Shown here: piece by piece, positions 9,011 through 61,765 of the stretch | How the letters are laid out: the number at the start of each line of letters is the position of its first letter | Position numbering within the stretch: position 1 is the first letter of the stretch | Translations under genes and position numbers: made by a program | Assembly (NCBI GenBank): GCA_023251095.1 | Contig: JAHEZL010000004.1 | Coordinates: 48,226-112,225 of the forward strand | DNA: 64,000 nt | DNA from: Flavobacteriales bacterium | Lineage (GTDB): Bacteria > Bacteroidota > Bacteroidia > Flavobacteriales_C > GCA-002722245 | Reading direction: 5' to 3' | The notes under the pieces: generated by a model | Database searches by the model: none | Told to the model about the DNA's origin: nothing | Seen by the model: the letters and a program-made list of their open reading frames with translations, nothing else

Positions 9011-9221
9011 GACAATCCGGTTAATTCGCTAAAGGTAAAAAAAATAGGCAATTGGAAACAGTCCCCTGATTTTAGGGGCTGAATGTCGTTTTGTCAGGAC
9101 TATCCTCGGACTTTTAAATCTTTGTCGGATATATAATGACAAAAGGTGTCAACCTGTCTATTAAAAACCAATGGCACAGGCATTGACAGTAGCACAGCAT
9201 AACAATTTAAAAAACACAATA

Positions 9222-30970: not shown

Positions 30971-31121
30971 ACCCCACTAAGGTTTATTTTTTTTTGCACG
31001 GTAACTTTTCCTTCCTTAAATTGTTCTACGATAGAGGCATCCCAAGATGCAACTATGAAAAACTACTGATTTGCTGATGTAAAGAAATCTTCTGTTCTGT
31101 GAGAAATTATTGATGCAGATT

Positions 31122-31159
31122 GCGACACTACTATTTTTTTGAATTTTATATTACTACAA
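31122..31159 (+). promoter_or_regulatory. conserved 5' regulatory motif of the giant CTD paralogs (copy 1)
   Basis: GCGACACTACTATTTTTTTGAATTTTATATTACTACAA immediately precedes the ATG. About 85% identical to 36791..36828 upstream of the second paralog. Confidence 0.5.
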
Positions 31160-36790: not shown

Positions 36791-36828
36791 CGAACACTAC
36801 TATTTTTGAATTTTATTTTATTACTACA
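36791..36828 (+). promoter_or_regulatory. conserved 5' regulatory motif of the giant CTD paralogs (copy 2)
   Basis: CGAACACTACTATTTTTGAATTTTATTTTATTACTACA contains TAttTTTG (the Bacteroidetes -7 consensus TAnnTTTG) and sits directly before the ATG at 36829. Confidence 0.5.
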
Positions 36829-45599: not shown

Positions 45600-45959
45600 T
45601 TAGTTTTTAATGGGGCAGAGTATAGGATCTAAAGGATGTCCCAAATTTACTCCAAATCCAGGGTGATCGTACCGGATGGTTTTGCATAAGAGTCCGTTTA
45701 ACCTTATTTCTAATTCAATATATTTTTGGTTGTCCCGAAAAACATAAGCCGTGAAATACCCGTCGGCAGAGCTATGGAAAGTATCGCTCTTCTCTTGTTT
45801 TCCATCGGGATATATTATTGTAAGCGTTGCTCCTGAAATTGCTTTTCCTGCTGCGTTTAACAATTTTCCTGAAATAGTGGTGGGGCCGGGAGGAAGTGCG
45901 TTCTCTTGTTGTGCAAACAAAGATCCGCTGATGAATAAGAGTAAAAACAATAATCTCAT
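45600..45959 (-). CDS. small secreted protein with carboxypeptidase-regulatory-like (CarbopepD_reg) fold
   Basis: The ATG at 45959 gives the signal peptide MRLLFLLLFISGSLFAQQ. ISGKLLNAAGKAISGATLTII is typical of the CarbopepD_reg beta-sandwich. Confidence 0.45.
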   Translation of the reverse strand: MRLLFLLLFISGSLFAQQENALPPGPTTISGKLLNAAGKAISGATLTIIYPDGKQEKSDTFHSSADGYFTAYVFRDNQKYIELEIRLNGLLCKTIRYDHPGFGVNLGHPLDPILCPIKN

Positions 45960-45999
45960 AGAAAGTATTTTCTTTTTGAAGACGAAAATTATGCCATAG

Positions 46000-46029
46000 C
46001 TACCCAACCTTTCTTTTTCAGCATCCGTA
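46000..46029 (+). promoter_or_regulatory. ECF-sigma-like promoter motif CTACCCAACC-N15-CCGTA (copy 1)
   Basis: The motif ends 19 nt before the ATG of 46049. Shared with 52827..52857, 57753..57779 and, inverted, 47408..47437. Confidence 0.45.
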
Positions 46030-46048
46030 GTTTTTAGAAACATCAATT

Positions 46049-47260
46049 ATGAAGAATATAATTTTACGAAGTTTAGTATTTGTGTCAATGTTGTTGAATA
46101 GTGTTAATCTGAATGCGCAAGCCGCTTCGGGTCCGCTCGTTTATAGCGGAAAATCGAATATTATTATCAACGGTAAAGCATTCACCTCAGGTACAAGTGG
46201 GGTGGCTATCACCTTAACCAATTGCTCAAAGGTGGTGATTTCCAATTGTGAATTTATTCTTACTAAAGACATTATAGGAATTCAATTGAACAATTGTAGT
46301 AACGTAGAAATTACGGGTTGTTATTTTGAGAATTTTCGCTCGGGGGTATATGCTGTAAATTGTACAGGCGGCATTAATATTCATTGTAATTCATATAAAA
46401 ATATAGCGGGAATAAAACCACGCGGACAAATGGTGCAGTTCAATACCTGCAGCGGTGCGGGAAATAAAGTGAATTACAATACGCTGGATCATACTTTCGG
46501 ATCGGGCACTCCCGAAGATTTGATTAATATGTATGCGTCGTACGGAACTACTGCCGATCCTATTCAGATCATAGGAAACCAGTTGCGTGGTGGCGGACCG
46601 AGTACTTCGGGCGGAGGAATTATGGTGGGCGACAACGGCGGACATGATGTGCGCATAGAAGACAATATTCTGGTGGATGTTGGTCAGTATGGCATCGGTG
46701 TGCCTGCCGGATACAACATTACTGTGATCAATAATAAGGTGTATGGCGCAAAACAAACCTGGACCAACGTGGGGCTTTATGTTGGTTTACAAGGAGAGGT
46801 GGATGGTGGCTATGCCTGTACCGGAAGCAGTATTCAGGTAAAAGACAATCAGATTAAATTCACCAATAAAAGCAATGTGGTGAACGGCTGGTACAATTGC
46901 ACTTGTTGTTCGGGAGTGGTGCAAAGCGGAAATAATTTTAAAGCGAGTATTACTTCCTCTGTTTTGCCTGCCAATTTAAGTTTGAATACCACACAATGTG
47001 GAAGTGTTGCTACTGCTGTTGCAGAAAAAAAATCATCAGATGCTTTTGATGTGTACCCCAACCCGGCAGAGCATCTATTAGTAGTGACTAATCTTACGGG
47101 AAGTGAAAATGTTCAGATTTTCAATTCTTTGGGTCAGGAGGTGTTTACTGCGAAAAACAATCTTGAAAATTCGCTGATACAAATTGATGTCGATGGATTT
47201 CCTTCAGGAATTTATTTTATTCAAATCAATAATCAGGTGAAAAAATTTATAAAGCAATAA
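46049..47260 (+). CDS. right-handed parallel beta-helix repeat protein with T9SS type-A C-terminal sorting domain
   Basis: Repeated NCS/NCT…ITGC…F beta-helix rungs (VISNCEF, VEITGCYFENF, INIHCNSY). C-terminal VYPNPAEHLLVV…GIYFIQINNQ T9SS CTD. Confidence 0.75.
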   Translation: MKNIILRSLVFVSMLLNSVNLNAQAASGPLVYSGKSNIIINGKAFTSGTSGVAITLTNCSKVVISNCEFILTKDIIGIQLNNCSNVEITGCYFENFRSGVYAVNCTGGINIHCNSYKNIAGIKPRGQMVQFNTCSGAGNKVNYNTLDHTFGSGTPEDLINMYASYGTTADPIQIIGNQLRGGGPSTSGGGIMVGDNGGHDVRIEDNILVDVGQYGIGVPAGYNITVINNKVYGAKQTWTNVGLYVGLQGEVDGGYACTGSSIQVKDNQIKFTNKSNVVNGWYNCTCCSGVVQSGNNFKASITSSVLPANLSLNTTQCGSVATAVAEKKSSDAFDVYPNPAEHLLVVTNLTGSENVQIFNSLGQEVFTAKNNLENSLIQIDVDGFPSGIYFIQINNQVKKFIKQ

Positions 47261-47407
47261 GAGCAACGATAGATCCTGAGGGATAATCCACGGAAGATGA
47301 CTATTCTTAATTACCCCTCATATAGTTCATTATAAGTGTCCTAATGATTCTTCTAATTCCAAAGGGATCTATCGCTTTTCCACTTAAAAATCAGTTCTTT
47401 TTTTCCG

Positions 47408-47437
47408 GTACGGATCACAGGGTCATTAGGTTGGGTA
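47408..47437 (-). promoter_or_regulatory. ECF-sigma-like promoter motif CTACCCAACC-N15-CCGTA (copy 3, minus strand, no downstream ORF)
   Basis: Reverse complement of GGTACGG…GGTTGGGTAG. It points into the 47261..47407 spacer, where no ORF longer than 7 aa exists. Confidence 0.35.
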
Positions 47438-47579
47438 GCATGAAATAATAACGATTTTTCTGTTTTTATATCGATCTAAGTCGTATTTTTTCCTTCTTCA
47501 ATATCTTATGAAGGAAAAGGGGCTTTCATAGGCATAAGAAAATTAACTTGTAAATTCTTGTCTTTTAATCAACGTCTAC

Positions 47580-48143
47580 GTGATTACAAACGATTTAATA
47601 GATAAATGTGTTCGTCAGGATATCCGTGCTCAGCTTGAAATGCATGAGTGTTGTTTCCGTATGCTGATGCCTGTTTGCTATAAGTTTGTACGCAATGAAG
47701 AAATGGCGCGTGAGTTATACAATCAAGGATTTTTAAAGATTTTGGATGCCTTGCAATATTTCGATCAAAATAAAGATTTTACGCAATGGGCCAAAAAGAT
47801 CATGATGAATAAGCTGATCGACGATTATAGAAGTAAGAAGTCCTTGCAGAAACTGATCGATGACAATTTGCAGCCCGATTTTGCTTCAAATACCATTCGT
47901 TTAAAAGATGAAAACACATATCTGAACCAGGCTGAAGAGGAAAGAGTAAACTACTTGCTGGAAAAATTGCCTGAAACCACCCGTCGTGTTTTTAGGCTCT
48001 TTGCCCTAGAGGGTTATTCTCACCAGGAGATCAGCGATTTGATGAAGATGTCAACCGGAACTTCCAAATGGCATGTGTCGAATGCGCGAAATTTATTGAA
48101 GCGTTTTGTTACAAAAAAATTAAATGTAGTGAGTCATGAATAG
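47580..48143 (+). CDS. RNA polymerase ECF-type sigma-70 factor
   Basis: Region 2 (…FLKILDALQYFDQNKDFTQWAKKIMMNKLIDDYR) and region 4 HTH (FRLFALEGYSHQEISDLMKMSTGTSKWHVSNARNLLK). GTG start. Confidence 0.85.
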   Translation: MITNDLIDKCVRQDIRAQLEMHECCFRMLMPVCYKFVRNEEMARELYNQGFLKILDALQYFDQNKDFTQWAKKIMMNKLIDDYRSKKSLQKLIDDNLQPDFASNTIRLKDENTYLNQAEEERVNYLLEKLPETTRRVFRLFALEGYSHQEISDLMKMSTGTSKWHVSNARNLLKRFVTKKLNVVSHE

Positions 48144-49422
48144 TGGGAATAACGACATACCGTCTTTTGAATACAAACCTGAGTTCAGACAGGAGATGGA
48201 AAAGATTTTGGTTAAAAGGAAATCGAAAAAGCGTTTTCTGTTTTTTTTAACCTGGACTTTAGGCGGGCTTGTCCTTGCTGCGGGATCCTTCTATTTCATG
48301 CAGGAAGAGCAACAAATACCGGAAGAAAAAATACAGAAAGAGCAAAATGTTCAGGAGATCTTTACATCGGAATCTGTTGCTGATGAAAGTGCTAAAAAGC
48401 AAATATTGACTACCGTAAATTCCAATGGAAGTACTACACCTGCGGAACAGAAAATTAAAAAGACCTTGGCTCAGAAAAAAACTGTAAGCACTTCACCTTC
48501 AATAAATACCTTTCAGCAGCAAACAAAACAAGAAGCAACAACACCGCAGGAGATACCGATAAATGCTATTGTTTCTACCGAAGTTGTTCAAAACGATTCT
48601 TCTTTATTGGAACAGGATAGTTTGCTTTCAACTACCGAAAACAAAATTTCTTTTGAAGATTCGTTAATGAGTTTTGCGCATAACAACAGCGATACTAATT
48701 TAACTGATACACTGGCTAAAGTTCCCGAGGATTCTGTAAAAAATTCATCAGATCATCAATGGCTATTGTACGTTGGTGCAGGAGCGAACAACAGCATTGG
48801 AGAAGGAGAATACAGCAATGGAATCGCTCCTTCTTTCAAATTAGGGGTGCATTATCTCAAAGAGTTCACTAAGGAACATGCTGTGGGAATAGGCTTACAA
48901 AGCAAGTTGTATAGGGGTCTATACAACTGGGGAGGCTACGATACGGTGAAGACAAGTATTACCAATCCTAACAACTCCGGCTACGATAAAATGGAAGCAC
49001 GTGTGGTAACGCACAATCAAAATAAATATGCAATGGCTTTGTCGCTGCCTTTGTATTATCGCTATTCCACTCCTAAATTCAGTTTCAGCGTTGGCGCGAG
49101 CATTGATTATCTGGCGGCAAATTTGTACGAACAAACTGCAGATTCTTCCAAGTATGGCATCAATACTTTTGTTTTTTACACAGAAGTTTTAACGGAGAAA
49201 ACAAGTGCTGCAAAAGTAAAGAAACAGGATTTCAGAGGAATCAATCAACTCAATTTCGGTCCGTTTATAGAAGTGGATTATCACTTGTCTCCCAAAATTT
49301 CTATGGGACTTACGGGGCAGATGCTGGTTCAGGATATTACCAATAATGCTGTTGTAAACGTCAATAAAAACAGTCCGATTTATTCTTTAAATGTAAGTTT
49401 GAAATATCATTTTTGTAAATGA
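48136..49422 (+). CDS. membrane protein co-transcribed with ECF sigma (putative anti-sigma factor with beta-barrel-like C-terminal domain)
   Basis: Overlaps the sigma gene by 8 nt. Short cytoplasmic N-terminus, one TM (FLFFLTWTLGGLVLAAGSFYF), and a large extracytoplasmic domain ending in an aromatic-rich beta pattern. No zinc anti-sigma motif is recognised, so the call is low confidence. Confidence 0.45.
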   Translation: MNSGNNDIPSFEYKPEFRQEMEKILVKRKSKKRFLFFLTWTLGGLVLAAGSFYFMQEEQQIPEEKIQKEQNVQEIFTSESVADESAKKQILTTVNSNGSTTPAEQKIKKTLAQKKTVSTSPSINTFQQQTKQEATTPQEIPINAIVSTEVVQNDSSLLEQDSLLSTTENKISFEDSLMSFAHNNSDTNLTDTLAKVPEDSVKNSSDHQWLLYVGAGANNSIGEGEYSNGIAPSFKLGVHYLKEFTKEHAVGIGLQSKLYRGLYNWGGYDTVKTSITNPNNSGYDKMEARVVTHNQNKYAMALSLPLYYRYSTPKFSFSVGASIDYLAANLYEQTADSSKYGINTFVFYTEVLTEKTSAAKVKKQDFRGINQLNFGPFIEVDYHLSPKISMGLTGQMLVQDITNNAVVNVNKNSPIYSLNVSLKYHFCK

Positions 49423-52400
49423 TGTTTTGGTATAAATTGATATTGGAAAAAACACGTTTTCCTGCAAGATTACTTGTGTGGCTTTTTCTGCTTTTGTTTT
49501 TACCCGACACTTATGCCCAGCAGTCGAAACAAGGATCTGCAAATATTTCTACTGCAAAAATTGTAAACGAATATGCTTATCTCACCACCGATGCAAAAAA
49601 GGGAACAGCCTTACTTAAGCTGAACAATGCTCAGCTGAATTCCAATAGTCGTTTTGCTTCCAATTTATCACCCGGAGATTTATTGTTTGTTCTTCAGGTA
49701 CAGGGAGCGATAATATCTACAGCAAATGATGCTTCTTATGGGTCGGTATTGTCGTTCAACGGTGCGGGCTTGAATGAATTTGTGCAGGTGAGATCTGTGA
49801 GCGGAAATAACGTGACCATTGATTGCGCATTAAAAAACGATTATAGCGCTGCGGGAAAAACAATGGTGATTCGTGTGCCCCGCTATCAAACGCTTACCAT
49901 TACTAATACAGGTGTGTTGAGCGCTGATGCATGGAACGGAAACAAGGGAGGAATTGTGGTGCTGGAAGTTGCAGGAGATTTAAAAATCGACGGAAAAATT
50001 GATGTTAGTGCAAAGGGATTCAGAGGCGGCGGCTATGATAACGGAACTTATAAAATCACTGATTCAATTGATCACAATCTCTTCGTTACTCCAGATTCTA
50101 ACGCCAGTGCTGAGAAAGGAGAAAGTATTGCCGGATATCAAAGTGATTATGATTTTATGGGAGGAAGGTATGGAAGAGGAGCAGCGGCGAATGGCGGCGG
50201 TGGTGGTAATACGCATAATGCCGGCGGTGGTGGCGGAGCCAATGGCGGAGATTTGTTGTTGTGGACAGGCTTAGGAAATCCAAATCATAGTCATCCTCAT
50301 TGGGTGAGTGCCTGGAATCTGGAGGGAAGTGGTTTTGCTTTTCAAATTTCTTCAGGCGGAGGAAGAGGAGGTTATTCTTATTCAAAGGTTCAGGAGGATC
50401 CCCTGATTACTGCGCCCGGTTCAATTGATTGGCTGGGAGATTTAAGAAGAAATATTGGTGGTTTTGGTGGACATCCCTTGCAATATGATGCAGCGGGTTC
50501 TCTTGTGTTTTTTGGTGGTGGCGGTGGTGCAGGCGATGCCAATAATTACGCTGTTGATACCACCGGCGGGAATGGTGGAGGTATTGTTGTTATAGTGGTG
50601 AAAGGGAATATAAGCGGTAGCGGAATAATTATTGCCGACGGAGGAAAAGGTGGCGATACCAGTCCGGCCGGAACTTTGAACGACGGTACAGGCGGTGGTG
50701 GCGGTGGCGGCGCCATTATTTTGACTGCTTCAGGAACTATTTCATCACTGACTTTGCAAGCCAACGGAGGAGACGGAGGGAGTCAGCTCATTGGTACTTT
50801 ACTCACTAAGCAAAAGTACGAGGCAGAAGGAATGGGCGGTGGCGGCAGTGGCGGATACATTGCTACTACCAATAGCTTAGTCTCTGTTTCTGTGTCGGGA
50901 GGGAAAAACGGAATTACCTCTTCGCAGGCGATGCTCAATTTTATTCATAACGGTGCAACTAAGGGAGGATCGGGATCGGTAGTTGTTATAGGTACTTCCA
51001 ATTATCAGTCGGTAAAAGTGGAAGTAAAACACGATACGGTGTGTGCCGGACAAACGGCTACGCTTATCGCTAATCCGGTGGGTGGCACGCCTTCTTTGGT
51101 GGAGTGGTATAGCGCCCCCGCGGGAGGAGTGCCTATACATACCGGTGGAACTTATTCTTTTACAGCCAACAATGCGGTGTGTTATTATGTGCAATATTGT
51201 CCGAATATTACCAGAGATACAGTGTGCGCGAAAATAGACCTTCCACCTGTTTTCGATTTAGGTAAGGAAGTCTACGTTTGTGCCGGCTTATCAGTGGAAC
51301 TGGATGCGGGCAGCGGATATTCCTACACCTGGAATACGGGAGAACATACCCGGAAAATTGCTGTGAAAAATGCCGGTAAATATTGGGTGTCGGTGAATGC
51401 ATCAGCTTGCGCAGCTTCCGATTCAGTCAATGTATATCTGTCTCCAAATCCTTTCGATTTGGGAGGAAATATAAGTGTGTGCGAAGGAAATCTGGTGACT
51501 CTGGATGCAGGATACTGGAGTTCGTATTCGTGGAGCACCGGCGCAAATACAAAAACCATTGCTGTGCTAACAGCGGGAGTGTATAAAGTATCGGTTTCTT
51601 CGGTATTGTGTTCAGGTATTGATTCTGTGAAAGTAACTTTGCTGCCTCTTCCTTCTTTTCAGGTATCCAGCGAAACCATTTGTGAGGGAGAGACAACAGA
51701 GCTGGAAGTGAAAATCACTGATCCTTTGAACAATCCTTCCAACTGGATTGTACAGTGGCAGGGAGGAGGAACAGCATTAAAAAAAACGCTGAGCAGCGAA
51801 GGGAAAAATCTTGTGAAAGTAACCAACAAAACCACCTTATGCGCCGATACTTCTTCGGGATACATATTCATTGATCCTCCTTTTGAAATTGATCTCGGAC
51901 CCGATCGCAATATTTGTGAAGGAGATTCCGTGCTGTTGAAAGTTCCGGGAACCTATCCCAAAAATATATGGAACGACCTTTCTCAGGGAACATCATTGCT
52001 CGTGAAAAAAACGGGATCTTATCGGGTGGAAGTCAGCGATGCAGTGGGATGCACAGCCATTGATAATGTTCAGGTGAATGTATTGTCGTTTACAGGATTT
52101 ACTTTGGGCGATGATATTGTCGCCTGCACCGGACAACAGGTAAGCATCGGAACAGCCGTCGAGACCGATTATTATTTATGGTCGGATGGAGCAACTACTC
52201 CTGAAATTGTTGTAGATGCCAACGGAGATTATATTCTTACCGTCAGCAATGAAATTTCCTGTTCGGCAACAGACACCGTCAACGTTCACTTTTTGCCTTA
52301 TCCACAGGTATATCCTGCCAACGATACTACTTTATGTTTTCTGGATTCAAAAGGTGAAGTTACGTTGAGTGCCGAATCCAAACCGGGCTATCAGTATTTG

Positions 52401-52811
52401 TGGAGTACAGGTGATACCAGTGCTGCCATAAGCATAGATGAAGAAGGAATTTATTTGTTGGAAATTCAATTGCCCTCGGTAAGTTGTGTATACAATAAAG
52501 AGGTAAAAGTGAATGATTACTGCGACGCGAAAATATTTTTTCCAACGGCTTTCACACCCAATGGAGACGGAATAAATGATATTTTTTATACTCCCAATTT
52601 TGCTTTGAAAGGTTATCGTTTTTTGATTTTGGATCGCTGGGGAAAGGAACTTTTTATAACAGAAGATCCTTCGTTGGGCTGGGATGGCAGATATCAGGGA
52701 AGAATAGTTCAGGAAGATGTGTATGTGTGGAAAGCATATTTTGATATGGAGCAGGAAAACGGACAAATCAAAAAGCAATCCCGTGTGGGACGGGTTGCTT
52801 TATTGAAATAA
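49419..52811 (+). CDS. giant Gly-rich surface protein with Ig-like repeats and T9SS type-B (gliding-motility-associated) C-terminal domain
   Basis: Overlaps the upstream gene by 4 nt (ATGA). Poly-Gly tracts GGGGGNTHNAGGGGGANGG. C-terminus CDAKIFFPTAFTPNGDGINDIF…FLILDRWGKELF…GWDG…, same family as the 31 kb and 37 kb genes. Confidence 0.8.
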   Translation: MMFWYKLILEKTRFPARLLVWLFLLLFLPDTYAQQSKQGSANISTAKIVNEYAYLTTDAKKGTALLKLNNAQLNSNSRFASNLSPGDLLFVLQVQGAIISTANDASYGSVLSFNGAGLNEFVQVRSVSGNNVTIDCALKNDYSAAGKTMVIRVPRYQTLTITNTGVLSADAWNGNKGGIVVLEVAGDLKIDGKIDVSAKGFRGGGYDNGTYKITDSIDHNLFVTPDSNASAEKGESIAGYQSDYDFMGGRYGRGAAANGGGGGNTHNAGGGGGANGGDLLLWTGLGNPNHSHPHWVSAWNLEGSGFAFQISSGGGRGGYSYSKVQEDPLITAPGSIDWLGDLRRNIGGFGGHPLQYDAAGSLVFFGGGGGAGDANNYAVDTTGGNGGGIVVIVVKGNISGSGIIIADGGKGGDTSPAGTLNDGTGGGGGGGAIILTASGTISSLTLQANGGDGGSQLIGTLLTKQKYEAEGMGGGGSGGYIATTNSLVSVSVSGGKNGITSSQAMLNFIHNGATKGGSGSVVVIGTSNYQSVKVEVKHDTVCAGQTATLIANPVGGTPSLVEWYSAPAGGVPIHTGGTYSFTANNAVCYYVQYCPNITRDTVCAKIDLPPVFDLGKEVYVCAGLSVELDAGSGYSYTWNTGEHTRKIAVKNAGKYWVSVNASACAASDSVNVYLSPNPFDLGGNISVCEGNLVTLDAGYWSSYSWSTGANTKTIAVLTAGVYKVSVSSVLCSGIDSVKVTLLPLPSFQVSSETICEGETTELEVKITDPLNNPSNWIVQWQGGGTALKKTLSSEGKNLVKVTNKTTLCADTSSGYIFIDPPFEIDLGPDRNICEGDSVLLKVPGTYPKNIWNDLSQGTSLLVKKTGSYRVEVSDAVGCTAIDNVQVNVLSFTGFTLGDDIVACTGQQVSIGTAVETDYYLWSDGATTPEIVVDANGDYILTVSNEISCSATDTVNVHFLPYPQVYPANDTTLCFLDSKGEVTLSAESKPGYQYLWSTGDTSAAISIDEEGIYLLEIQLPSVSCVYNKEVKVNDYCDAKIFFPTAFTPNGDGINDIFYTPNFALKGYRFLILDRWGKELFITEDPSLGWDGRYQGRIVQEDVYVWKAYFDMEQENGQIKKQSRVGRVALLK

Positions 52812-52826
52812 AATAAAAAATTACTT

Positions 52827-52857
52827 CTACCCAACCTTTCCGCTTTCACAAACGGTA
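52827..52857 (+). promoter_or_regulatory. ECF-sigma-like promoter motif CTACCCAACC-N16-CGGTA (copy 2)
   Basis: CTACCCAACCTTTCCGCTTTCACAAACGGTA lies 47 nt upstream of the ATG of 52904. Confidence 0.45.
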
Positions 52858-52903
52858 TTCTTGTTTAAGGGGCTATAAATGGGTATAATTTAAAATTTCA
52901 ACT

Positions 52904-54814
52904 ATGTTAAAATCATTACTGTTTACTTCAGTATTGCTGATGTCTCAAATTTTGGTTCCCGCACAAACGTGGAGAAGCGCTTATTATCCTACTACCTGGA
53001 AAGCGCCGGTCACAAAGAATTTTTATACCGATGCTTTTTTGCAGGATTATTCTTACGCCGGATATCAGCGTGGCGAAGTAGATGTACCCGCACCAACCGG
53101 AAAAGTTTTTGATGTGACCAAGACGCCTTACAACGCCGATAAAACCGGAGCTGCTGATGCAACTGCCGCCATTCAAAAAGCCATTGATGATGCTCAAATC
53201 AATAATGGTGGTGTAGTTTATCTTCCTGCGGGAACATATAAAGTGAGTCCGGGTTCCAATCCTCAGGCTTTGCGAATTTCCAAAAGCAATATTTATTTGA
53301 AAGGCGATGGTATCGGAAAAACATTTATCCTCAACTCTTCTTATCAGATGAATAATAAATCGATTATTAAAGTTACTGGATCGGCATCATGGACAAATAT
53401 GCCTTCTTCAAAAGCTTTACTCACTGCTGATGTGATGAATCCTGTAAATGTTTTGCCTATCGACAATCCTTCATTATTTAAAGTAGGCGATTTGATTATG
53501 GTGCGAAATGTTGTGGGTGATGCATGGATCAACGAGCACAAAGAAACAGATTGGATTGGTGCAGGAGCAAACTTGCGTGGCTTGATGTATTGCAGATATG
53601 TTACCGCAATAGATGCAGCAAAAAAAACAATTACCATAGATGTGCCTTTGCGTTATGCACTTAAAACCCGCGATGGTGCTTGTGCATTTATATTGAACGG
53701 AATGATTAGTGAAGTGGGGCTGATGGATTTTTCTATTGGAAATATTCAGCATCCTGCTACTACAGGTTTTGGTGAAAATGATTATACCACTTCAGGAACT
53801 GCAGCTTATGATTGTCACAGCTCTTATGTTATCAATTTAAATGCTGTGTTGAATGGCTGGATGAAAAATATTTCTACCTATAAACCTTCAACAAATACAA
53901 CAGGAAGTCAAATGTTGTCGAATGGTGTTTTGGTGCAGTATTCAAAAAATGTAACGGTTGACAATTGCACCATGCGCTATGCGCAATACGGAGGTGGTGG
54001 TGGAAATGGTTATGCCTACAGGGTTTCAGCGAATGAAGTGTTGATTAGTAATTGTACTGCAACTTATACGCGACACGGATTTGTGTTTTCCAGCATGTGG
54101 ACTTCCGGAAATGTTTTTCATAAATGTAACGATGTGCACACTGGATTTCAATGTGGAAATACAGGCAACATGAGTACTTCGGGTTATGGAAGCGATCATC
54201 ACATGCATTTCAGTCAGTCGAATTTAATTGATAATTCCTACACAGAGAACAGCGGTTTTTATGCTTATTACCGACCGTATGGTTCTGATCCCATGCATCT
54301 TTTAACGGCAACACACACAGCTTACTGGAACATTGCTTCGGGTGGTACAAAAGCATATTGTGTGTGGACGCAGCAAAGCAGATATGGTTATGCCATCGGT
54401 ACTTCGGGAACAGAGTCGGCAGTGTACACCAAAGAAAACGCAACAGGATCGGCGGCAAAAACCGATCCGGTGGATATTGTAGAAGGAGTGGGTAAAGGTG
54501 CAACACTGCAACCGCAATCGCTGTATTTGGATCAGTTGGAAAAACGCACGAACGCTATCAGTACCGATATTTCCGCAGAAGAGGTAAAACGCTCTTTCAT
54601 GATTTATCCCAATCCGGCCAACACTTTGCTGATAGTACAATTGTCGGCAGTAGAAAAAACAGAAGTGCATATTTATGATGCGCTCGGACAAAATGTTATG
54701 CAAAAAAGTTTTGCGAATGAAGCTCAATTTCAAATCGATTTAAGCCAGTTGTCTTCGGGTGTATACTATCTGCAAGTCAATAATGAAGGGCAAAAACTAA
54801 TCATTAATAAATAG
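52904..54814 (+). CDS. pectate-lyase-like/GH28-related beta-helix protein with T9SS type-A C-terminal sorting domain
   Basis: N-terminal TGAADATAAIQKAIDDAQINNGGVVYLPAGTYKV (Pectate_lyase_3/GH28-like), beta-helix rungs, and the C-terminal MIYPNPANTLLIV…GVYYLQVNNEGQ CTD. Confidence 0.7.
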   Translation: MLKSLLFTSVLLMSQILVPAQTWRSAYYPTTWKAPVTKNFYTDAFLQDYSYAGYQRGEVDVPAPTGKVFDVTKTPYNADKTGAADATAAIQKAIDDAQINNGGVVYLPAGTYKVSPGSNPQALRISKSNIYLKGDGIGKTFILNSSYQMNNKSIIKVTGSASWTNMPSSKALLTADVMNPVNVLPIDNPSLFKVGDLIMVRNVVGDAWINEHKETDWIGAGANLRGLMYCRYVTAIDAAKKTITIDVPLRYALKTRDGACAFILNGMISEVGLMDFSIGNIQHPATTGFGENDYTTSGTAAYDCHSSYVINLNAVLNGWMKNISTYKPSTNTTGSQMLSNGVLVQYSKNVTVDNCTMRYAQYGGGGGNGYAYRVSANEVLISNCTATYTRHGFVFSSMWTSGNVFHKCNDVHTGFQCGNTGNMSTSGYGSDHHMHFSQSNLIDNSYTENSGFYAYYRPYGSDPMHLLTATHTAYWNIASGGTKAYCVWTQQSRYGYAIGTSGTESAVYTKENATGSAAKTDPVDIVEGVGKGATLQPQSLYLDQLEKRTNAISTDISAEEVKRSFMIYPNPANTLLIVQLSAVEKTEVHIYDALGQNVMQKSFANEAQFQIDLSQLSSGVYYLQVNNEGQKLIINK

Positions 54815-54818
54815 AATT

Positions 54819-57605
54819 ATGAGAAATAAAATTTTGTTTTTCCTGCTCGTGCTATGCTCTTATGTGAACGCTCAGGTTCCTGCAGCAACAGCCGATTTTT
54901 TTAAGCTGATTGATTTAACCCGGCCTGATATGAAAAACATTTCAGCTTTGGTAACTGCTGCAAAGTATGACGCTGCGCTGGAAGTATGGCGAGATACTGT
55001 GGTGAATCGTTTGCGAAGATTGAATCTCGGACAGTTCAACTGGCACTCTAATTGTCAGAATGGGTATTATATCAACTGGTCGAAAATGCTGGTGGAAAAT
55101 ATTACACCTGCAACTTATAACGCCGGCTCTACGAGTTATAATGATTATTTTGATCTCACCAATTCACCTTACAAAACAGTAAAAAATGTAAAATGGATTG
55201 CTTCACCACCAAGCGGAATGCAAGATGACGACGGTGAAATCGCCAGCTATATGATGTTTGTTCCTTTGCCTGCAACCTATCATAAAATGGGCGATACCAT
55301 TTATTTAAAAAAGTTTATGCAGGTGTCGAGTGATTTTGCAGTGCGACAAAAAACTTTGTTGAAAGCATTATCTGCTGCCGATCAAAAATTATATTCTCCC
55401 AATTGGAGCACCGGCGCTCAGGAAGTTTTATGGCAGGGCGACAGAGTAGCGAACATCGTAAAATGTTTGGGAGTGCTGGCGAAAAATCTTCCGGGTGAAA
55501 CAAAAATTTCTGCATGGGATGGAGTGATCAGCACGGTGAGAGGAAAGGTGACTACACAAAACACAAAATGTATTTCAGCTAAACAATTGTCAAATATTGC
55601 TGCGGCTTTGGTGGGTGATAATCCCGATTTATTATTGTCGGTTTACCGCTATGCAGGTAAAGTTCCCAACCAACGTTTCAACGGATTGTATTCTTTAATG
55701 ATGATGTGTTTAGCTTTTCCCGAGTTTAAATCGGTAGCGGTTGATGAAGTGGAAGTTGTTGCCGGACTCACCGATTTCATGAATACCATGTGCGCAAAAG
55801 ACGGTGGATTTTTAGAGCAATCTTTTAATTACAATCAAACCGATGCCGGTAAAATGAGTGATTTGGTGGATATGGCGGCGTCGGCAGGAAGATCAAGTAT
55901 GCCGGTGATTGCTTTGATTTCAAACGGAGTAGATGATTTTTATAGAATGTTGTGGGCACTTAAAACTCCTTTGATGGCACAGCCTTTAGTGGGCAACTGT
56001 GCACATAGCGGCGCAACAAATGTGTGGACGAGCACTACAGTTGCTGATACGTATAAAAAAACAATTACAGCTTCGTCGGATGCTTTATCCAAACAAATTG
56101 TAAATGCTTTCAATGGTAAAACTCCTGCGCCTAAATTCACTTCCATTTCATTTCCTTACAGCGGATATTATACGCAGCGACAAGGCTGGGAAATTGATGA
56201 TGCTTATTTATTTTTTATGGGCGGGCGTGCGGCACGCGGACATAAAATGGGCGATAACAACAGCATTCAAGTGGTGGCCTTCGGTAGAGAATTACTCGCT
56301 ACCGACGGGCCACCCGATTATTTCGGAGATCTCACCGGTGACCAGGGAACTTACATCAGTGAAAATTCTTCATTGAAAGCCAACACAATTATTGTGGATG
56401 GAAAATCACAAAACAAAAATTCTATTTTAACCAGTCAGGCTTCTGCACCAATTACTTCACGTAACTACAATTCGACTACGGAAGATTTTGTGGAAGGAAC
56501 TTTTGATAAAGGCTATTGCACGATTGGCGCAACGTCGGCTTCGGTGACTGATGTAACGCACAACCGACAAGTTATCTTTTTAAAAGAAGCAGGCATTTGG
56601 ATCATGACTGATTTTATGAATCACACAGGAACCAACACGCATACTTATGCGCAAGTGTGGAATTTTGAACCTTATCTTACCGCTTCAAAAATTTATGGCT
56701 TCACTGAAGCTCAGGTTTCTTTTGATAAAACAAACAAAAGAATTGTAACTGTTGATCCATCCGGACCGAATATCCGATTGCAGAATTTCGGGAAAATCTC
56801 CACTCTCGATTATGTGAAATATTACAATCAGGCTTCTCCTGCAATGGGTTGGTATGCGCCGAGTATCAGTACTATTACTCCTGCGGTGGATATTCATGCA
56901 ACATGGACGGGCACAGGGAATCAGGCTTTGGGAACCATCATCATGCCTGCAAAAGGATTGACGAAAGATGTGGTGTACAAAGATTTATCACCCGATGTAA
57001 AAACTACTGCGCTTTCTCTCACTTTACCGAATGGAAATAAACTGATGTATTCATCGGGCTTCACTGCAAAAGCAACAACGCAATTCAATTTCACTTTCAA
57101 CAGCAAAGGATATTTGTTGCAGGAAAATGCAAATGGCGATGTGACAGGAATGGTGATTGGCGGCGATAAAGCGGCGTTGCTGTGGGATGGTAATTCCATT
57201 GATCACGGATTTTCTGATTACGGAATTTCTTATGACGTAGCAATGCAAACCATTACTTTAACTCCGTTTGAAGTACCCAATACTTTTGTGTGGGACAGTA
57301 AACCTATGGCGTCTATTGTTTCTCCGGCAAAGGCGGATGTGGTATTTGTGATTAGTACAACTGCTGTAAATTCAGTGATTACAGAAGGAGTGGTGGTGTA
57401 TCCGAATCCATCCAACGGAGCTTTCTTTTTAAATTCTGCGCAAGATGTAAAGCAAATTAAAATCTATAATCTTCAGGGAAAAGAAATGGAGAATATTCAA
57501 AATGTGGATTTTGGTTTTGGAGAAAATTTAGCGGAGGGAATGTATATTCTTCAGGTGGAATATATGAATGGAAATATCTTTTATAATAAGATTGAAAAGT
57601 TTTAG
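54819..57605 (+). CDS. T9SS cargo protein, possible polysaccharide lyase (heparinase II/III-like alpha/alpha toroid + beta-sandwich); function uncertain
   Basis: Signal peptide and an N-terminal helical region resembling heparinase II/III N-termini, but no catalytic motif confirmed. C-terminal VVYPNPSNGAFFLNSAQDVKQIKIYNLQGKE…GMYILQVEYMNGNIFYNKIEKF T9SS CTD. Starts 4 nt after the upstream gene, so probably operonic. Confidence 0.5.
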   Translation: MRNKILFFLLVLCSYVNAQVPAATADFFKLIDLTRPDMKNISALVTAAKYDAALEVWRDTVVNRLRRLNLGQFNWHSNCQNGYYINWSKMLVENITPATYNAGSTSYNDYFDLTNSPYKTVKNVKWIASPPSGMQDDDGEIASYMMFVPLPATYHKMGDTIYLKKFMQVSSDFAVRQKTLLKALSAADQKLYSPNWSTGAQEVLWQGDRVANIVKCLGVLAKNLPGETKISAWDGVISTVRGKVTTQNTKCISAKQLSNIAAALVGDNPDLLLSVYRYAGKVPNQRFNGLYSLMMMCLAFPEFKSVAVDEVEVVAGLTDFMNTMCAKDGGFLEQSFNYNQTDAGKMSDLVDMAASAGRSSMPVIALISNGVDDFYRMLWALKTPLMAQPLVGNCAHSGATNVWTSTTVADTYKKTITASSDALSKQIVNAFNGKTPAPKFTSISFPYSGYYTQRQGWEIDDAYLFFMGGRAARGHKMGDNNSIQVVAFGRELLATDGPPDYFGDLTGDQGTYISENSSLKANTIIVDGKSQNKNSILTSQASAPITSRNYNSTTEDFVEGTFDKGYCTIGATSASVTDVTHNRQVIFLKEAGIWIMTDFMNHTGTNTHTYAQVWNFEPYLTASKIYGFTEAQVSFDKTNKRIVTVDPSGPNIRLQNFGKISTLDYVKYYNQASPAMGWYAPSISTITPAVDIHATWTGTGNQALGTIIMPAKGLTKDVVYKDLSPDVKTTALSLTLPNGNKLMYSSGFTAKATTQFNFTFNSKGYLLQENANGDVTGMVIGGDKAALLWDGNSIDHGFSDYGISYDVAMQTITLTPFEVPNTFVWDSKPMASIVSPAKADVVFVISTTAVNSVITEGVVVYPNPSNGAFFLNSAQDVKQIKIYNLQGKEMENIQNVDFGFGENLAEGMYILQVEYMNGNIFYNKIEKF

Positions 57606-57613
57606 TGGGGTTT

Positions 57614-57690
57614 TTTAGGTAATGGTTTTTGTAGAGACGCAAAATTTTGCGTCTCGTGATATGGTTTGTCGGAGACGGAAAATCTTCCGT
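57614..57690 (+). terminator. twin-hairpin terminator region (GAGACGcaaaattttGCGTCTC and GAGACGgaaaatcttcCGTCTC nested in an outer TGTAGAGACG…CGTCTCTACA palindrome)
   Basis: Two near-identical 8-bp-stem hairpins inside a larger palindrome, directly after the stop of 54819..57605. Confidence 0.55.
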
Positions 57691-57752
57691 CTCTACAAGA
57701 AACATACACTCTCTCTGCTTCAAAGGGGGTAATTCCGATAAGTACTTGTTTG

Positions 57753-57779
57753 CCGCAACCCTAAAATTTTCAAAACGTA
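57753..57779 (+). promoter_or_regulatory. ECF-sigma-like promoter motif variant CGCAACC-N15-CGTA (copy 4)
   Basis: GCCGCAACCCTAAAATTTTCAAAACGTA lies 52 nt upstream of the ATG of 57832, with the same spacing as copies 1 and 3. Confidence 0.35.
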
Positions 57780-57831: not shown

Positions 57832-60324
57832 ATGGGAATGAAGATTTGTTGGCGTATATTTTTCTGTTTTTTATTGAGTACAATAAATATTATGGCTGCT
57901 ACCAAAACGTGGGATGGCGGAGGGGCTGACGACAACTGGCAAACTGCAGCCAACTGGGATTTGGATGTGGCGCCTGTTGCAGGAGATGCTCTGGTTTTTG
58001 CGGGTTCAACCCGAACAACGCCCAACAATGATTTTGCAGCCAACACAAGTTTTGCTTCCATTACTTTTTCCAATGGAGCCTCTTCCTTTACTTTATCTGG
58101 CAATGATTTAACACTCAGTGGAGGGGCTACGGCCATAACAGCCAGTAATGCAAGCAACGCAATGGTAATTAGCATAAACATTACTTTCAGTACCGCAGCT
58201 CCAACTATCACCAGTACTTCAGGAGGAACACTTACACTATCGGGAACAGTTGCTAACGGCGGATTTTTGCTAACAATAGCCGGAGATGGTGTTATTACCA
58301 TTAGCGGAGTACTTAGTGGAACAGGAGCATTGTATATCAATACTATCCTTGATAACGTTACCATTCTCTCTGGAACAAATACATTTACGGGGAATGTTAC
58401 GATAAATGTTGGAGGAATAAGAATCAGCAGTGCAAGCGGATTGGGAGCGGGTGCAAAAACGATCACGATGACTAATGGGGCGTCATCCAGTTTGAGGCTG
58501 GATGCATCAGGAGGCGACATCACTCTCCCCAACACCCTTTCTTTCAATATCAGCGCCGCATCGGGAACTTATGGGGGAATTATTAATGAAGCTGGTAATA
58601 GCATTATTCAAAGTGATATGTCGGTACCTACTGGTGGAGGAGGTGTTCGGCTGATGTCATCTGTAGGTACAATATCTGCCAGCGGTACATATACTCCTAC
58701 TGCTGCTGGAAGAGTACTAGCTTTATATGGTGCTTCAAATGGCACTTTTAGCGGTACATGGTTGGATGCAGGTTATACTACTACGGAATTAAATAAATTT
58801 GATGCGGGAACGTGGACTTTAACCAATACTGGAAATAGTTATGCAGGAAGAACATACATACAAGTGGGTACATTGAAACTAGGTGCAGCGGGTGTTATTC
58901 CTGATTTGAGTACAGTTACAGGTGCCGGAACCTTTGATATGAATGGTTACAGCGAAACAGTGGGTTCAATGGCTAGAACAGGGATCACTGATATTGTTTC
59001 TGCCGGCGGTACTTCAACACTAACTTGTGGTGGTGACAATACGAGTACCACCAATTCGGGAGTGATAAAAAATACTACCGGAACTTTGTCTCTAACGAAA
59101 GTAGGAAGTGGAACGCTTACTTTATCAGGTACCAATACTTACGCCGGTACCACTACAATTTCCGCTGGTACAATTGCGGTGGGAGCGGGTGGCACTACTG
59201 GAGCCATAGCAGGAAACATTACCAACAACTCCGCACTGCAATTTAACAGAACAAATTCGTATACTTATAGTGGTACTATCAGCGGCTCAGGAACGGTGCT
59301 GCAAGCTGGCTCAGGAACCACTACTTTTTCGGGCTCCAATTCTTACACCGGTACCACTACTATTTCAGCAGGTACTTTGCAGCTGGGTGCTGCGGGTGTT
59401 ATTTCTAATTCAAGTAATGTGGTGCTGAATGGTGGTTATCTGTCTACGGGCTCAGGTGCAGGATACAGCGAAACTGTGGGGACATTAACACTCACCGCTA
59501 ATAGCAGAATTGCACTTGGTACAGGTAGCCATTCTTTAAATTTTGCAGCAAGTGACGGAACTGCGTGGACAGGTGGTACTTTGCTTCGAATCACAGGCTG
59601 GCAAGGTGGATTTGATTGCAGCTCGGGTACTTCCGGTAAAGTTTATACAGGTTCCAGTAACGAGCTTGCTGCCGGAAAATTAGCACAGATATTTTTCTCT
59701 CATCCTATTTCCGGTTTGCCTTTTACGGCCTGTCAGCTCAATACTGGAGAAATTGTGCCTACTTCAACACTTCCTGTGGAACTGGTGTCGTTTAATGGCG
59801 AACTGAACAACAGTGTTGTTGATTTGTACTGGCTCACTGCTTCAGAAATCAATAGTGATTATTTTGAGATATTGCGATCTTCCGATGCCATTCATTTTGA
59901 GTCGATAGGCAAAGTGGAAGCTGCCGGCAACAGCAATGATTTTATATCATATTCTTTTCACGATGCTGAACCACTTTCAGGTTACAGCTATTATAAATTA
60001 GTTGAAATTGATATTGACGGCGCTCAGCAAAATTCAAAAATAATTGGAATTAATCGTGCTTCTGATGAAGCTACTTTATCCATTTTCCCCAATCCGAATG
60101 AAGGCAGTATAATCGTTAGCTTTAATGCCCTCTTTGCAGGGATATTCAATTTAGTAATATACAATATGGAAGGACAGCAAGTGTATCATGCAATGGTTGC
60201 TGCAAACGAAGGGAGCAATAAATTCGATTTGAGCTTGGCTCAGTTGACAGCAGGAAATTACATTGTTGAATTAGTGGATTTCAATCAGCAAAAACAACAA
60301 ACAAAAATCACGAAGAAAGAATAA
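57832..60324 (+). CDS. autotransporter-associated beta-strand-repeat (passenger-like) protein with T9SS type-A C-terminal sorting domain
   Basis: Repeated ~20-aa units (TLTLSGTNTYAGTTTISAGTL; TTFSGSNSYTGTTTISAGTLQLGAAG) typical of autotransporter beta-strand repeats. C-terminal …LSIFPNPNEGSIIVSF…GNYIVELVDF CTD. Confidence 0.7.
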   Translation: MGMKICWRIFFCFLLSTINIMAATKTWDGGGADDNWQTAANWDLDVAPVAGDALVFAGSTRTTPNNDFAANTSFASITFSNGASSFTLSGNDLTLSGGATAITASNASNAMVISINITFSTAAPTITSTSGGTLTLSGTVANGGFLLTIAGDGVITISGVLSGTGALYINTILDNVTILSGTNTFTGNVTINVGGIRISSASGLGAGAKTITMTNGASSSLRLDASGGDITLPNTLSFNISAASGTYGGIINEAGNSIIQSDMSVPTGGGGVRLMSSVGTISASGTYTPTAAGRVLALYGASNGTFSGTWLDAGYTTTELNKFDAGTWTLTNTGNSYAGRTYIQVGTLKLGAAGVIPDLSTVTGAGTFDMNGYSETVGSMARTGITDIVSAGGTSTLTCGGDNTSTTNSGVIKNTTGTLSLTKVGSGTLTLSGTNTYAGTTTISAGTIAVGAGGTTGAIAGNITNNSALQFNRTNSYTYSGTISGSGTVLQAGSGTTTFSGSNSYTGTTTISAGTLQLGAAGVISNSSNVVLNGGYLSTGSGAGYSETVGTLTLTANSRIALGTGSHSLNFAASDGTAWTGGTLLRITGWQGGFDCSSGTSGKVYTGSSNELAAGKLAQIFFSHPISGLPFTACQLNTGEIVPTSTLPVELVSFNGELNNSVVDLYWLTASEINSDYFEILRSSDAIHFESIGKVEAAGNSNDFISYSFHDAEPLSGYSYYKLVEIDIDGAQQNSKIIGINRASDEATLSIFPNPNEGSIIVSFNALFAGIFNLVIYNMEGQQVYHAMVAANEGSNKFDLSLAQLTAGNYIVELVDFNQQKQQTKITKKE

Positions 60325-60436
60325 TTTTTATTTTTTTTTATCCTTCCTGTTTTTAATAATGTAAAAATAACACTATATTGGTGTGCTGCTAGCTTGTAAA
60401 GATCAAGGGGAATTTATTTACATTATACCTTATCTA

Positions 60437-61765
60437 ATGAAAAAGTTAGTTTTAATCTTACCTCTTTTTTTTATCAGTATCACCGGAGATGCGCAAGGTC
60501 TCAAAAGTTTTTTGCCTTCAGGTAAATACATTGGTACTGCCATCAACGATACTTATTTCGATAATCCATCGGCCAACGGAGCGGATTATGAAAACATTGT
60601 TAAAGCCGATTTTAACGTTGTTGTTGCTGAAAATGCTTTTAAGATGAGTACTATTTTAGCCACTAAACCTTCCGATCCTTTGAACTTAAAACTGAGCGAT
60701 TTGAATTTAAGCAAAGTGGATAAATTAATCACTTTCACTCAAAACAATAACATCAGATTAAGAGGTCATAATTTTGTATGGTATTCCTATCCGCCTTATT
60801 GGTTAAACTCCGAAGCGGCAAAATGGAGTGAGGTTCAGTTGTATTCTTTTACCAAACAATACATTACTTTATTGGCCGGCTATTGCAAAGGAAAAGTGAA
60901 AGAATGGGATGTGGTGAATGAAGCAATTGATGACGATGCTACCACTCCTGCTTACCGCAGTATTACCTGGTATTCAAAAGCAAGCTCTGCTCAAACGTTT
61001 ATCGATAGTTGTTTTTATTACGCTCATGCAGCCGATCCTGATGCCGAACTTTTTTACAACGATTACAGCATCGAAATAAGTTATTTTAAAAAACAGGATT
61101 TTATGCTCGCCATGGTTCAGGACATGGTGAATCGCGGTGTTCCAATTAATGGTGTTGGTTTGCAATGTCATTTTGAAAGTGGTGCGAATACAAATGATTG
61201 GGTATACAATGAACTAAGAATATTGATGGATAAACTGGCGGTGATGGGATTGAAATGCAATATCACCGAATTGGATTTGCGTATTTGCGGCAGCGGATCA
61301 TCTTCTGTTGAACAAGCCGATGAGTATAAAAAAATAACAAAAATATTTCTCGATAAAAGCAATTGCACTTCAATGTTGCTATGGGGATTTACCGATAAAT
61401 CATCTTGGATTCCATCGTTTTTTTCAAATTGTGATGATGGTTTAATTTACGATGATGCTTACCAGCCTAAACCTGCTTATACTGCAATTAAAGATGAGTT
61501 GGAAAGTAGTAATGCGGTTGAATTGCCTGATAATGCTGCTGAAGCAAACGCAGGTGTTTATCCAAATCCTTCTTCACAATCTTTCTTTTTGAGAAGTTCT
61601 GCTGATGTAAAACAAATCACAATTTTCAATCTGCAGGGAAAAGAAATTTCTGTTGTTGAAAATGTTAAGGAAGGCTTCGGAGAAAATTTAGCGGAAGGAT
61701 TTTATATGGTAAAAATTCAATATTTTAACGGAGATATTTCTTTCCAAAAAATTGAAAAAATGTAA
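60437..61765 (+). CDS. glycoside hydrolase family 10 endo-1,4-beta-xylanase with T9SS type-A C-terminal sorting domain
   Basis: GH10 signatures: GHNFVWYSYPPYWL, acid/base region WDVVNEAIDDD and nucleophile region NITELDL. The ATG at 60437 gives the signal peptide MKKLVLILPLFFISITGDAQG. C-terminal CTD GVYPNPSSQSFFL…. Confidence 0.85.
   Translation: MKKLVLILPLFFISITGDAQGLKSFLPSGKYIGTAINDTYFDNPSANGADYENIVKADFNVVVAENAFKMSTILATKPSDPLNLKLSDLNLSKVDKLITFTQNNNIRLRGHNFVWYSYPPYWLNSEAAKWSEVQLYSFTKQYITLLAGYCKGKVKEWDVVNEAIDDDATTPAYRSITWYSKASSAQTFIDSCFYYAHAADPDAELFYNDYSIEISYFKKQDFMLAMVQDMVNRGVPINGVGLQCHFESGANTNDWVYNELRILMDKLAVMGLKCNITELDLRICGSGSSSVEQADEYKKITKIFLDKSNCTSMLLWGFTDKSSWIPSFFSNCDDGLIYDDAYQPKPAYTAIKDELESSNAVELPDNAAEANAGVYPNPSSQSFFLRSSADVKQITIFNLQGKEISVVENVKEGFGENLAEGFYMVKIQYFNGDISFQKIEKM

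Follow-up and report, generated by a model that had tools for sequence, protein, structure and literature searches.

Das1 and Dma1 of Bacteroides thetaiotaomicron constitute an extracytoplasmic function (ECF) sigma/anti-sigma pair of the ECF21 family, and pulldown and fractionation experiments showed that the N-terminal ~40 residues of Dma1 bind the sigma factor, with the barrel of the protein residing in the outer membrane (PMC10927553). EcfO and Reo, of B. fragilis and P. vulgatus, were assigned to the same family (PMC10927553, PMC13114119). Dma-type (dual membrane-spanning) anti-sigmas were described only in 2024, and their regulons have so far been known in gut Bacteroidales alone, as NigD lipoproteins and vesiculation. 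A comparable system is probably encoded in a 64,000-nt (64-kb) stretch of DNA from an uncultured Flavobacteriales bacterium (GenBank assembly GCA_023251095.1, contig JAHEZL010000004.1, positions 48,226 to 112,225 of the forward strand), the whole of which is referred to below as the window. Copies of a bipartite motif, tACCCAACC-N16-CGTA, lie close to an ECF sigma gene of the window (47580-48143) and precede genes for predicted type IX secretion system (T9SS) cargo. From sequence, we put at about 80% the probability that this motif is the promoter of a Bacteroidota family of ECF sigmas paired with Dma-type anti-sigmas, of which the window sigma would be a member.

The locus resembles Das1/Dma1 and EcfO/Reo in several respects. 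The sigma gene is overlapped by that of a partner which combines a short cytoplasmic N-terminus, one transmembrane helix, and a long disordered linker with a C-terminal OmpA-like/OMP_b-brl_2 barrel; the gene that follows in the operon encodes a surface protein; and the family is restricted to Bacteroidota. In B. thetaiotaomicron, the regulon gene that adjoins the pair is nigD2 (BT_4719), which may be compared with the surface-type third gene of the present operon. The outputs differ, since the known regulons consist of NigD lipoproteins (vesiculation, stress), whereas predicted T9SS cargo enzymes and adhesin-like proteins are found here. Unlike Das1/Dma1, the window's clade adds an inverted promoter and seems to have exchanged autoregulation for a sigmaA-like promoter; the likeness to Das1/Dma1 is one of architecture. 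No promoter consensus was found in the literature searched on Das/Dma and EcfO/Reo. Relative to the same literature, what appears to be new is an explicit consensus for the promoter, an output of T9SS cargo in environmental Flavobacteriales, and a conserved inverted promoter that is paired with a sigmaA-like one. The features concerned are given below in their order along the window, with the C-terminal sorting domain of T9SS cargo abbreviated to CTD.

46002..46029, plus strand: putative promoter P1, ACCCAACC-N16-CGTA with an exact core; its 3′ edge lies 20 nt from the ATG of the beta-helix cargo gene.
46049..47260, plus strand: gene X, encoding a right-handed beta-helix protein with a T9SS type A CTD (Pfam Beta_helix, 1.3e-10; Por_Secre_tail, 2.5e-13; TIGR04183).
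47267..47374, plus strand: structured 3′ untranslated region (UTR) and terminator of gene X, a 108-nt hairpin element with the closing stem CGATAGATCC/GGATCTATCG, followed by T-runs.
47409..47436, minus strand: putative inverted promoter P2, ACCCAACC-N16-CGTA with an exact core, reading into gene X from its 3′ end, with the sigma gene behind it.
47440..47495, plus strand: sigmaA-type promoter-like block (TTG, ~22 nt, TAnnTTT), facing the sigma operon and back-to-back with P2.
47580..48143, plus strand: ECF (group 4) sigma gene, Das/EcfO-like, 187 aa (Pfam Sigma70_r2, Sigma70_r4_2, and Sigma70_ECF; TIGR02937, 84.6 bits, cutoff 42.9).
48136..49422, plus strand: candidate Dma-type anti-sigma gene, overlapping the sigma gene by 8 nt (alignment, AF2 model, Foldseek).
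49419..52811, plus strand: third operon gene, encoding an 1130-aa surface protein with a T9SS type B sorting domain (CHU_C, 4.7e-10; Ig_7; TIGR04131; AgmC_N-like region) and overlapping the partner gene by 4 nt.
52829..52857, plus strand: putative promoter P3, a ACCCAACC-N16-CGGT(A) variant, 47 nt ahead of the two-gene lyase operon.
52904..57605, plus strand: two-gene unit encoding a pectate-lyase-like protein (52904-54814) and a heparinase II/III-like protein (54819-57605), each with a T9SS type A CTD (Pfam).

The 64-kb window contains exactly three copies of the 11-mer CTACCCAACCT, at 46000-46010 (plus strand), 52827-52837 (plus strand), and 47428-47438 (minus strand), and each of them is followed, after 14-15 nt, by C(C/G)GTA. 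For the pattern CCCAACC-N14-17-CSGTA, three matches were obtained in the window against 0.03 expected, a number that was reached in none of 100 shuffles. A first-pass annotation of this DNA, made from the letters alone, had listed four copies. Three of these, at 46002-46029, 47409-47436, and 52829-52857, are real by this count (3 against 0.03 expected), whereas the fourth, at 57753-57779, is at chance level and is taken up further below. The inverted copy is present as described, although its coordinates had been shifted by one and are correctly 47409-47438. The form CTACCCAACC-N15-CCGTA, said to be common to two copies, is indeed shared by two, but the pair consists of the 46000 copy and the inverted copy, since the 52827 copy has ACGGTA. 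This box of P3 can be read as CGGT at N16 or as GGTA at N17.

The closest relatives of the window are freshwater Flavobacteriales/Bacteroidota metagenome-assembled genomes (MAGs). Sigma loci were compared in three sets, namely orthologues with 72-90% identity (L002-L005, L014, L016, L017), paralogues with ~50% identity (L006, L018-L020), and distant homologues with 29-40% identity (L007-L013, L015); a metagenome scan for further orthologues yielded two loci only. Taken over the window and these related loci, the consensus was refined to tACCCAACC-N16-CGTA, and the same 355 kb of non-redundant sequence contain 27 strict sites, compared with ~0.05 expected and with 0-1 in each of 20 shuffles. 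All 27 strict sites are intergenic, the sole "coding" flag being an overlap with a spurious TTG extension of a minus-strand open reading frame (ORF). Twenty of them have a co-oriented ORF 8-204 nt downstream, and the remainder are mostly inverted copies, with one site running off a contig end. The spacer measures exactly 16 nt in 28 of 30 sites, and across the orthologous and paralogous loci the boxes are invariant, with diverged spacer and flank sequences. BLAST of the spacer returned no extended similarity. Conserved boxes combined with free spacers, and lacking an extended repeat, form the pattern of a bipartite polymerase-binding site rather than that of a repeat.

The motif, its positions, and its conservation were observed directly in these loci, and its co-occurrence with sigma homologues spans 29-90% identity. 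Among the more distant homologues (29-51% identity), the motif is found upstream of the sigma gene or of the operon-leading gene in L006, L008, L010, L012, L018, and L020, and a variant of the motif occupies one of these positions in L007, L011, and L013. L018 has two tandem copies 69 nt apart (9122-9218) and eight copies within 20 kb, all of which precede either a T9SS cargo gene or the sigma operon. Sites cluster tightly around the sigma gene in every locus, and none was found in the window outside 46-53 kb. At the position of P1, canonical sites are also present in L002, L004, and L014, and a one-mismatch site, CCCCAACC, is present in L003; the ACGGTA variant of P3 recurs at the orthologous site of L003 (17352-17378). 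Between argS and P1, a small divergent ORF (45600-45962, minus strand) gave a weak CarboxypepD_reg-like match (E 6e-4, below the Pfam cutoff), and the TTG-extended mechanical version of this ORF overlaps P1.

The gene contents observed downstream of the sites are narrow. Annotated genes directly after forward sites fall into three classes only, which are T9SS cargo genes, a gene leading the sigma operon, and the sigma gene itself. The cargo class comprises the window genes, five genes of L018, and genes in L002-L005, L010, L011, and L014, the cargo of these last seven loci including beta-helix, PATR, CHU_C, and PKD proteins; for the GH18 cargo gene ahead of the L005 sigma, the only site is distant and off-spacing. 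In the paralogous operons, a Kazal-domain gene takes the leading place and sits between the motif and the sigma gene (L006, 8892-8919; L018, 9122-9218; L020, 22-49). The motif lies directly before the sigma gene in L008 and L012, and does so as a variant in L007, and a motif with CGTG precedes a cargo gene that leads the sigma operon in L010 and L011. Within the window, the motif was not found before the CHU_C giants (31139, 36829), or before the GH10, GH16, and 61752 cargo genes. Because several window cargo genes are devoid of it, the motif would mark a sub-regulon of local extent, as opposed to a promoter of T9SS cargo genes in general. The earlier proposal that the two boxes are the −35 and −10 elements of the local ECF sigma, and that they drive T9SS cargo genes, is supported by the conservation of the boxes and of the 16-nt spacing, by the CTD genes downstream, and by the homologues that carry the motif before their own operon.

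The genes themselves, as called in the first-pass annotation (the sigma gene at 47580-48143, the partner overlapping it by 8 nt, the giant CTD protein overlapping in turn by 4 nt, and the cargo genes), were upheld by an ORF check and by Pfam. The sigma protein has regions 2 and 4 only, as expected of an ECF sigma. NCBIfam places it at the superfamily level only, its scores for Sig70_bacteroi1 (74 bits) and sigma_PG0214 (60 bits) falling below the respective cutoffs of 126 and 130. The region 4.2 helix MSTGTSKWHVSNAR, which reads the −35 element, is invariant across the sigma family down to 29% overall identity, and this invariance fits that of the −35 box. The order of sigma gene followed by partner gene is kept in all homologous loci. 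The third operon gene is kept after the pair in L003, L004, L005, L014, and L016; in the distant loci L008 (11874-12998) and L010 (11836-12942), the third gene encodes a ~370-aa PKD-domain protein and not an 1130-aa protein with a type B CTD. Since a PKD-domain protein follows the pair in these distant members, a surface-type third gene seems to be a general feature.

The partner consists of a conserved cytoplasmic N-terminus (residues 1-33), a hydrophobic transmembrane segment (34-55), a variable, low-complexity linker of ~150 aa (56-203) with a predicted local distance difference test score (pLDDT) below 50, and a conserved C-terminal domain of ~220 residues that ends in ...LKYHF in the alignment. 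In the AlphaFold2 (AF2) model, residues 16-59 form a helix, 56-203 are disordered, and 207-427 make up an all-beta domain (block-mean pLDDT mostly 76-93, with loops of low confidence). Foldseek matched the beta domain to OmpA, NspA, Ail, and OmpX with a probability of 1.0 and target-normalised TM-scores of 0.56-0.64. Homology between the partner of L006 and that of the window extends over the full length (E 4e-11), and Pfam PF13568 (OMP_b-brl_2) is matched by the L006 and L008 partners only, the window partner being without a Pfam match. On the alignment and the modelled fold, the partner has the published Dma architecture, and hence is not a new kind of protein. Surface signalling of the FecI/FecR/TonB type is not indicated, as no FecR match was found in the partner and no TonB-dependent receptor was found in the locus.

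Several points weigh against the assignment of the motif to this sigma family and its anti-sigmas. The link from sigma to motif rests on co-occurrence. The window sigma is without a forward copy of the motif upstream, which makes the usual argument from autoregulation an indirect one here. The partner has no anti-sigma match in Pfam or NCBIfam, and a class I anti-sigma domain would not fit into its short N-terminus. Nothing downstream of P2 is conserved beyond close relatives, and the product and role of P2 are conjectural. Finally, the motif is also used by paralogous sigmas of related genomes, leaving the pairing of sigma and promoter ambiguous. For this reason the earlier phrase "dedicated ECF module" is kept in part: a local regulon is supported, but "dedicated" is doubtful, because the paralogous sigmas share both the motif and the region 4.2 helix.

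It is possible, if on balance doubtful, that the sites are real ECF promoters belonging to a shared regulon of several Das-type paralogues, with the neighbouring sigma neither the sole nor necessarily the main driver. The genomes of L002 and L005 each have a second sigma/Dma locus (L006 and L018; ~50% identity) with ACCCAACC-N16-CGTA, the helix that reads the −35 element is identical in all paralogues, and overlapping ECF regulons have been discussed for F. psychrophilum (PMC9723704); however, the clustering of sites round a sigma gene in every locus, and their confinement to 46-53 kb within the window, point to local pairing. It is highly improbable that the motif, instead of being a sigma promoter, serves a conventional DNA-binding regulator as its operator or is what remains of a repeat or mobile element, and no feature of the sequence speaks for this in particular. 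The motif is asymmetric, its orientation toward genes is fixed, and, as is typical of ECF promoters, it has AAC/CGT boxes and a spacer of 16 nt; the likeness between copies is confined to the two boxes, with no extended repeat and no flanking inverted repeats, and it accompanies sigma homologues over the full range of identities compared (29-90%).

ECF promoters in general carry AAC in the −35 element and CGT in the −10 element, ~16-17 nt apart, and a site before the operon of the sigma itself is typical. The sigmaW promoter of B. subtilis reportedly reads TGAAAC-N16-CGTA. The present motif agrees with this general form in its AAC/CGT boxes, in its ~16-nt spacing, and in the site upstream of the sigma operon in most family members; it differs in that the −35 element is extended and C-rich (ACCCAACC), and the window's clade differs in having no forward copy before the sigma gene. 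Two further systems tie an ECF sigma to type IX secretion in Bacteroidota, as is proposed here, namely PorXY-SigP of P. gingivalis (PMC4800418) and SM6 of F. psychrophilum (PMC9723704). These control genes of the T9SS machinery (gldN, porU, and others), whereas the predicted targets here are cargo genes beside the sigma, and SigP is regulated via a two-component system and not by a Dma-type partner. The ECF-type SM6 promoters of F. psychrophilum have a CGT −10 box and include those of a sigma/anti-sigma operon and of a putative regulatory RNA (PMC9723704).

By analogy with Das1/Dma1 and EcfO/Reo, we propose the following mechanism, in which the sigma dependence of the promoters, the nature of the signal, and the role of P2 are inferred. 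The Dma-like partner (48136-49422) would hold the sigma factor at the inner membrane via its short cytoplasmic N-terminus, with its beta-barrel sitting in the outer membrane, until an envelope or surface cue frees the sigma from the partner. The freed sigma would then guide RNA polymerase to P1, ahead of the beta-helix gene, to P3, ahead of the pectate-lyase-like/heparinase-like operon, and to the inverted P2. The protein products of this local regulon would all be T9SS cargo with glycan-active folds. The sigma operon itself would be driven by the sigmaA-like promoter back-to-back with P2, and not by a classical autoregulatory ECF promoter, and the antisense RNA from P2 might limit gene X, or insulate the sigma operon from read-through. 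A more far-reaching proposal, which we regard as unlikely, is that in freshwater Flavobacteriales the Dma-type anti-sigma reports the state of T9SS-exported surface proteins, possibly via the co-transcribed type B CTD giant at the barrel, that the sigma drives a local set of glycan-active cargo genes, and that in the window's clade a constitutive sigmaA promoter and, coupled to it, an inverted sigma promoter with an output-capping antisense RNA replace positive autoregulation. If true, a sensor of T9SS surface proteins coupled to a sigmaA/inverted-promoter circuit would add a new output and a new circuit design to the Das/Dma family. The sharp motif and its predicted T9SS glycan-active regulon provide a testable handle on what envelope-spanning signalling controls outside the gut, and ACCCAACC-N16-CGTA is a simple pattern for target prediction in genomes and MAGs.

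In the window and in all orthologues, the sole motif copy before the sigma gene is inverted; forward copies precede the sigma operon in the more distant homologues named above. The inverted copy, P2, has a perfect core in 8 of 8 orthologous assemblies, where it lies 132-148 nt before the sigma start in the same orientation and with diverged spacers. The neighbouring block at 47440..47495 shows invariant columns in an ungapped alignment of seven orthologues. By comparison with the published Bacteroidota sigmaA consensus, TTTG/TAnnTTTG (PMC9723704), it appears to be a sigmaA promoter for the sigma operon. P2 and this block together align gap-free in the seven orthologues, with ~22 bp between the two upstream elements. 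Conserved as it is, P2 offers a small, clean case for the study of sigma-dependent antisense or divergent control.

The first-pass annotation had described an ORF-free spacer under the inverted copy, which is borne out (148 nt), and had suggested that an antisense or small RNA arises there. The promoter is conserved, and antisense is the better of the two readings, but no conserved small RNA or ORF follows P2. A small protein gene after P2 was rejected, as the sequence past the transcription start holds no ORF of at least 20 aa, and such short ORFs as overlap the spacer lack conservation. The 108-nt hairpin element (47267-47374) is common to the window and L002 only, and the other orthologues have a short hairpin and T7 terminator in its place. 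In L003 and L016, a clear plus-strand hairpin and T7 occupy this position, and the A7G run shared downstream of P2 is the T-tract of this plus-strand terminator of gene X. The L002 stem keeps U.G on the plus strand (C.A on the minus strand), which indicates that the hairpin belongs to the 3′ UTR of gene X. The minus-strand spacer RNA of the window folds well too (z −3.5 to −3.6). A conserved structured small RNA after P2 was nevertheless rejected, since conservation does not extend beyond L002, and since in L003, L014, and L016 only the plus strand folds, as a terminator. Rfam gave nothing meaningful, either at the gathering threshold over the whole window or at a permissive threshold over 45900-47700, and no tRNAs were found in the window. 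Two further candidates were ruled out. A trans-acting anti-CTD RNA finds no support, as the 3′ end of gene X is without significant complementarity to other CTD-coding regions of the window. An invertible promoter is likewise not indicated, given that no inverted repeats flank 47409-47438, that a single orientation is seen in 8 of 8 assemblies, and that the locus has no recombinase.

The product of P2 is most likely a sigma-dependent cis-antisense RNA that would cross the gene X terminator into the 3′ end of the gene. The sigmaE-dependent RNAs MicA and RybB of E. coli and the DonS-type antisense RNAs of ECF-controlled Bacteroides glycan loci offer precedents, in that a stress-sigma-type promoter gives rise to a non-coding transcript within its own regulon. 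The present case differs in that neither a conserved RNA body nor a seed or terminator was found, and in that the predicted antisense transcript would cover just one cargo gene, at its 3′ end. A discrete, trans-acting small RNA that tunes the mRNAs of T9SS cargo or outer-membrane proteins in the manner of MicA and RybB is improbable. The stable fold of the minus-strand spacer in the window speaks for it, as does the putative regulatory RNA among the ECF-type SM6 promoters of F. psychrophilum. It is opposed by the empty Rfam search, by an RNA body that is not conserved among orthologues, by the missing minus-strand terminator, by the minus strand being unstructured in L003, L014, and L016, while the plus strand forms the terminator hairpin, and by the want of complementarity to other CTD-coding regions in the window. 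Somewhat less remote, yet still unlikely, is a role of P2 through polymerase occupancy and not through a functional RNA, either by tuning the divergent sigmaA-like promoter (steric or supercoiling feedback) or by blocking read-through from gene X. The gap-free alignment of P2 and the sigmaA-like block, with its ~22-bp separation of upstream elements, would suit such a role, as would a downstream sequence that is not conserved beyond close relatives, contains no ORF, and has its RNA structure on the plus strand. However, a roadblock seems redundant because gene X already has its own terminator, and an active promoter would yield RNA regardless.

Just past the heparinase-like gene, the region 57631-57696 contains two adjacent, near-perfect palindromes, 57634-57655 (GAGACGCAAAATTTTGCGTCTC) and 57671-57693 (GGAGACGGAAAATCTTCCGTCTC), and their outer arms, GTAGAGAC and GTCTCTAC, also pair. 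The region is probably a compound terminator or an element resembling repetitive extragenic palindromes (REP-like). Beyond it lie the following features.

57753..57779, plus strand: doubtful fourth site, CCGCAACC-N15-CGTA, before the PATR/CTD gene 57832-60324, with 2 core mismatches and a 15-nt spacer.
57832-60324: gene for a PATR protein with a CTD.
60383-61765: gene for a GH10 protein with a CTD.

Matches with two mismatches are expected ~8.8 times per shuffled window, and a relaxed pattern that admits the fourth site gave 4 matches against 1.24 expected, which is not significant. The L016 PATR genes have no such site before them. In L003, the orthologue of the window PATR gene (47% identity) does have a canonical site, so the fourth site of the window may be a weak or decayed descendant. 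By its sequence, the fourth copy is indistinguishable from chance, and it was not counted in the regulon.

The two CHU_C (type B CTD) paralogues at 31139-36691 and 36829-41514 are preceded by near-identical stretches of ~20 nt before their starts (31115-31138 and 36800-36828; GCGACACTACTATTTTTTTGA and GCGAACACTACTATTTTTGAA), and the ~20-nt stretch before both giants resembles a sigmaA −7 box.

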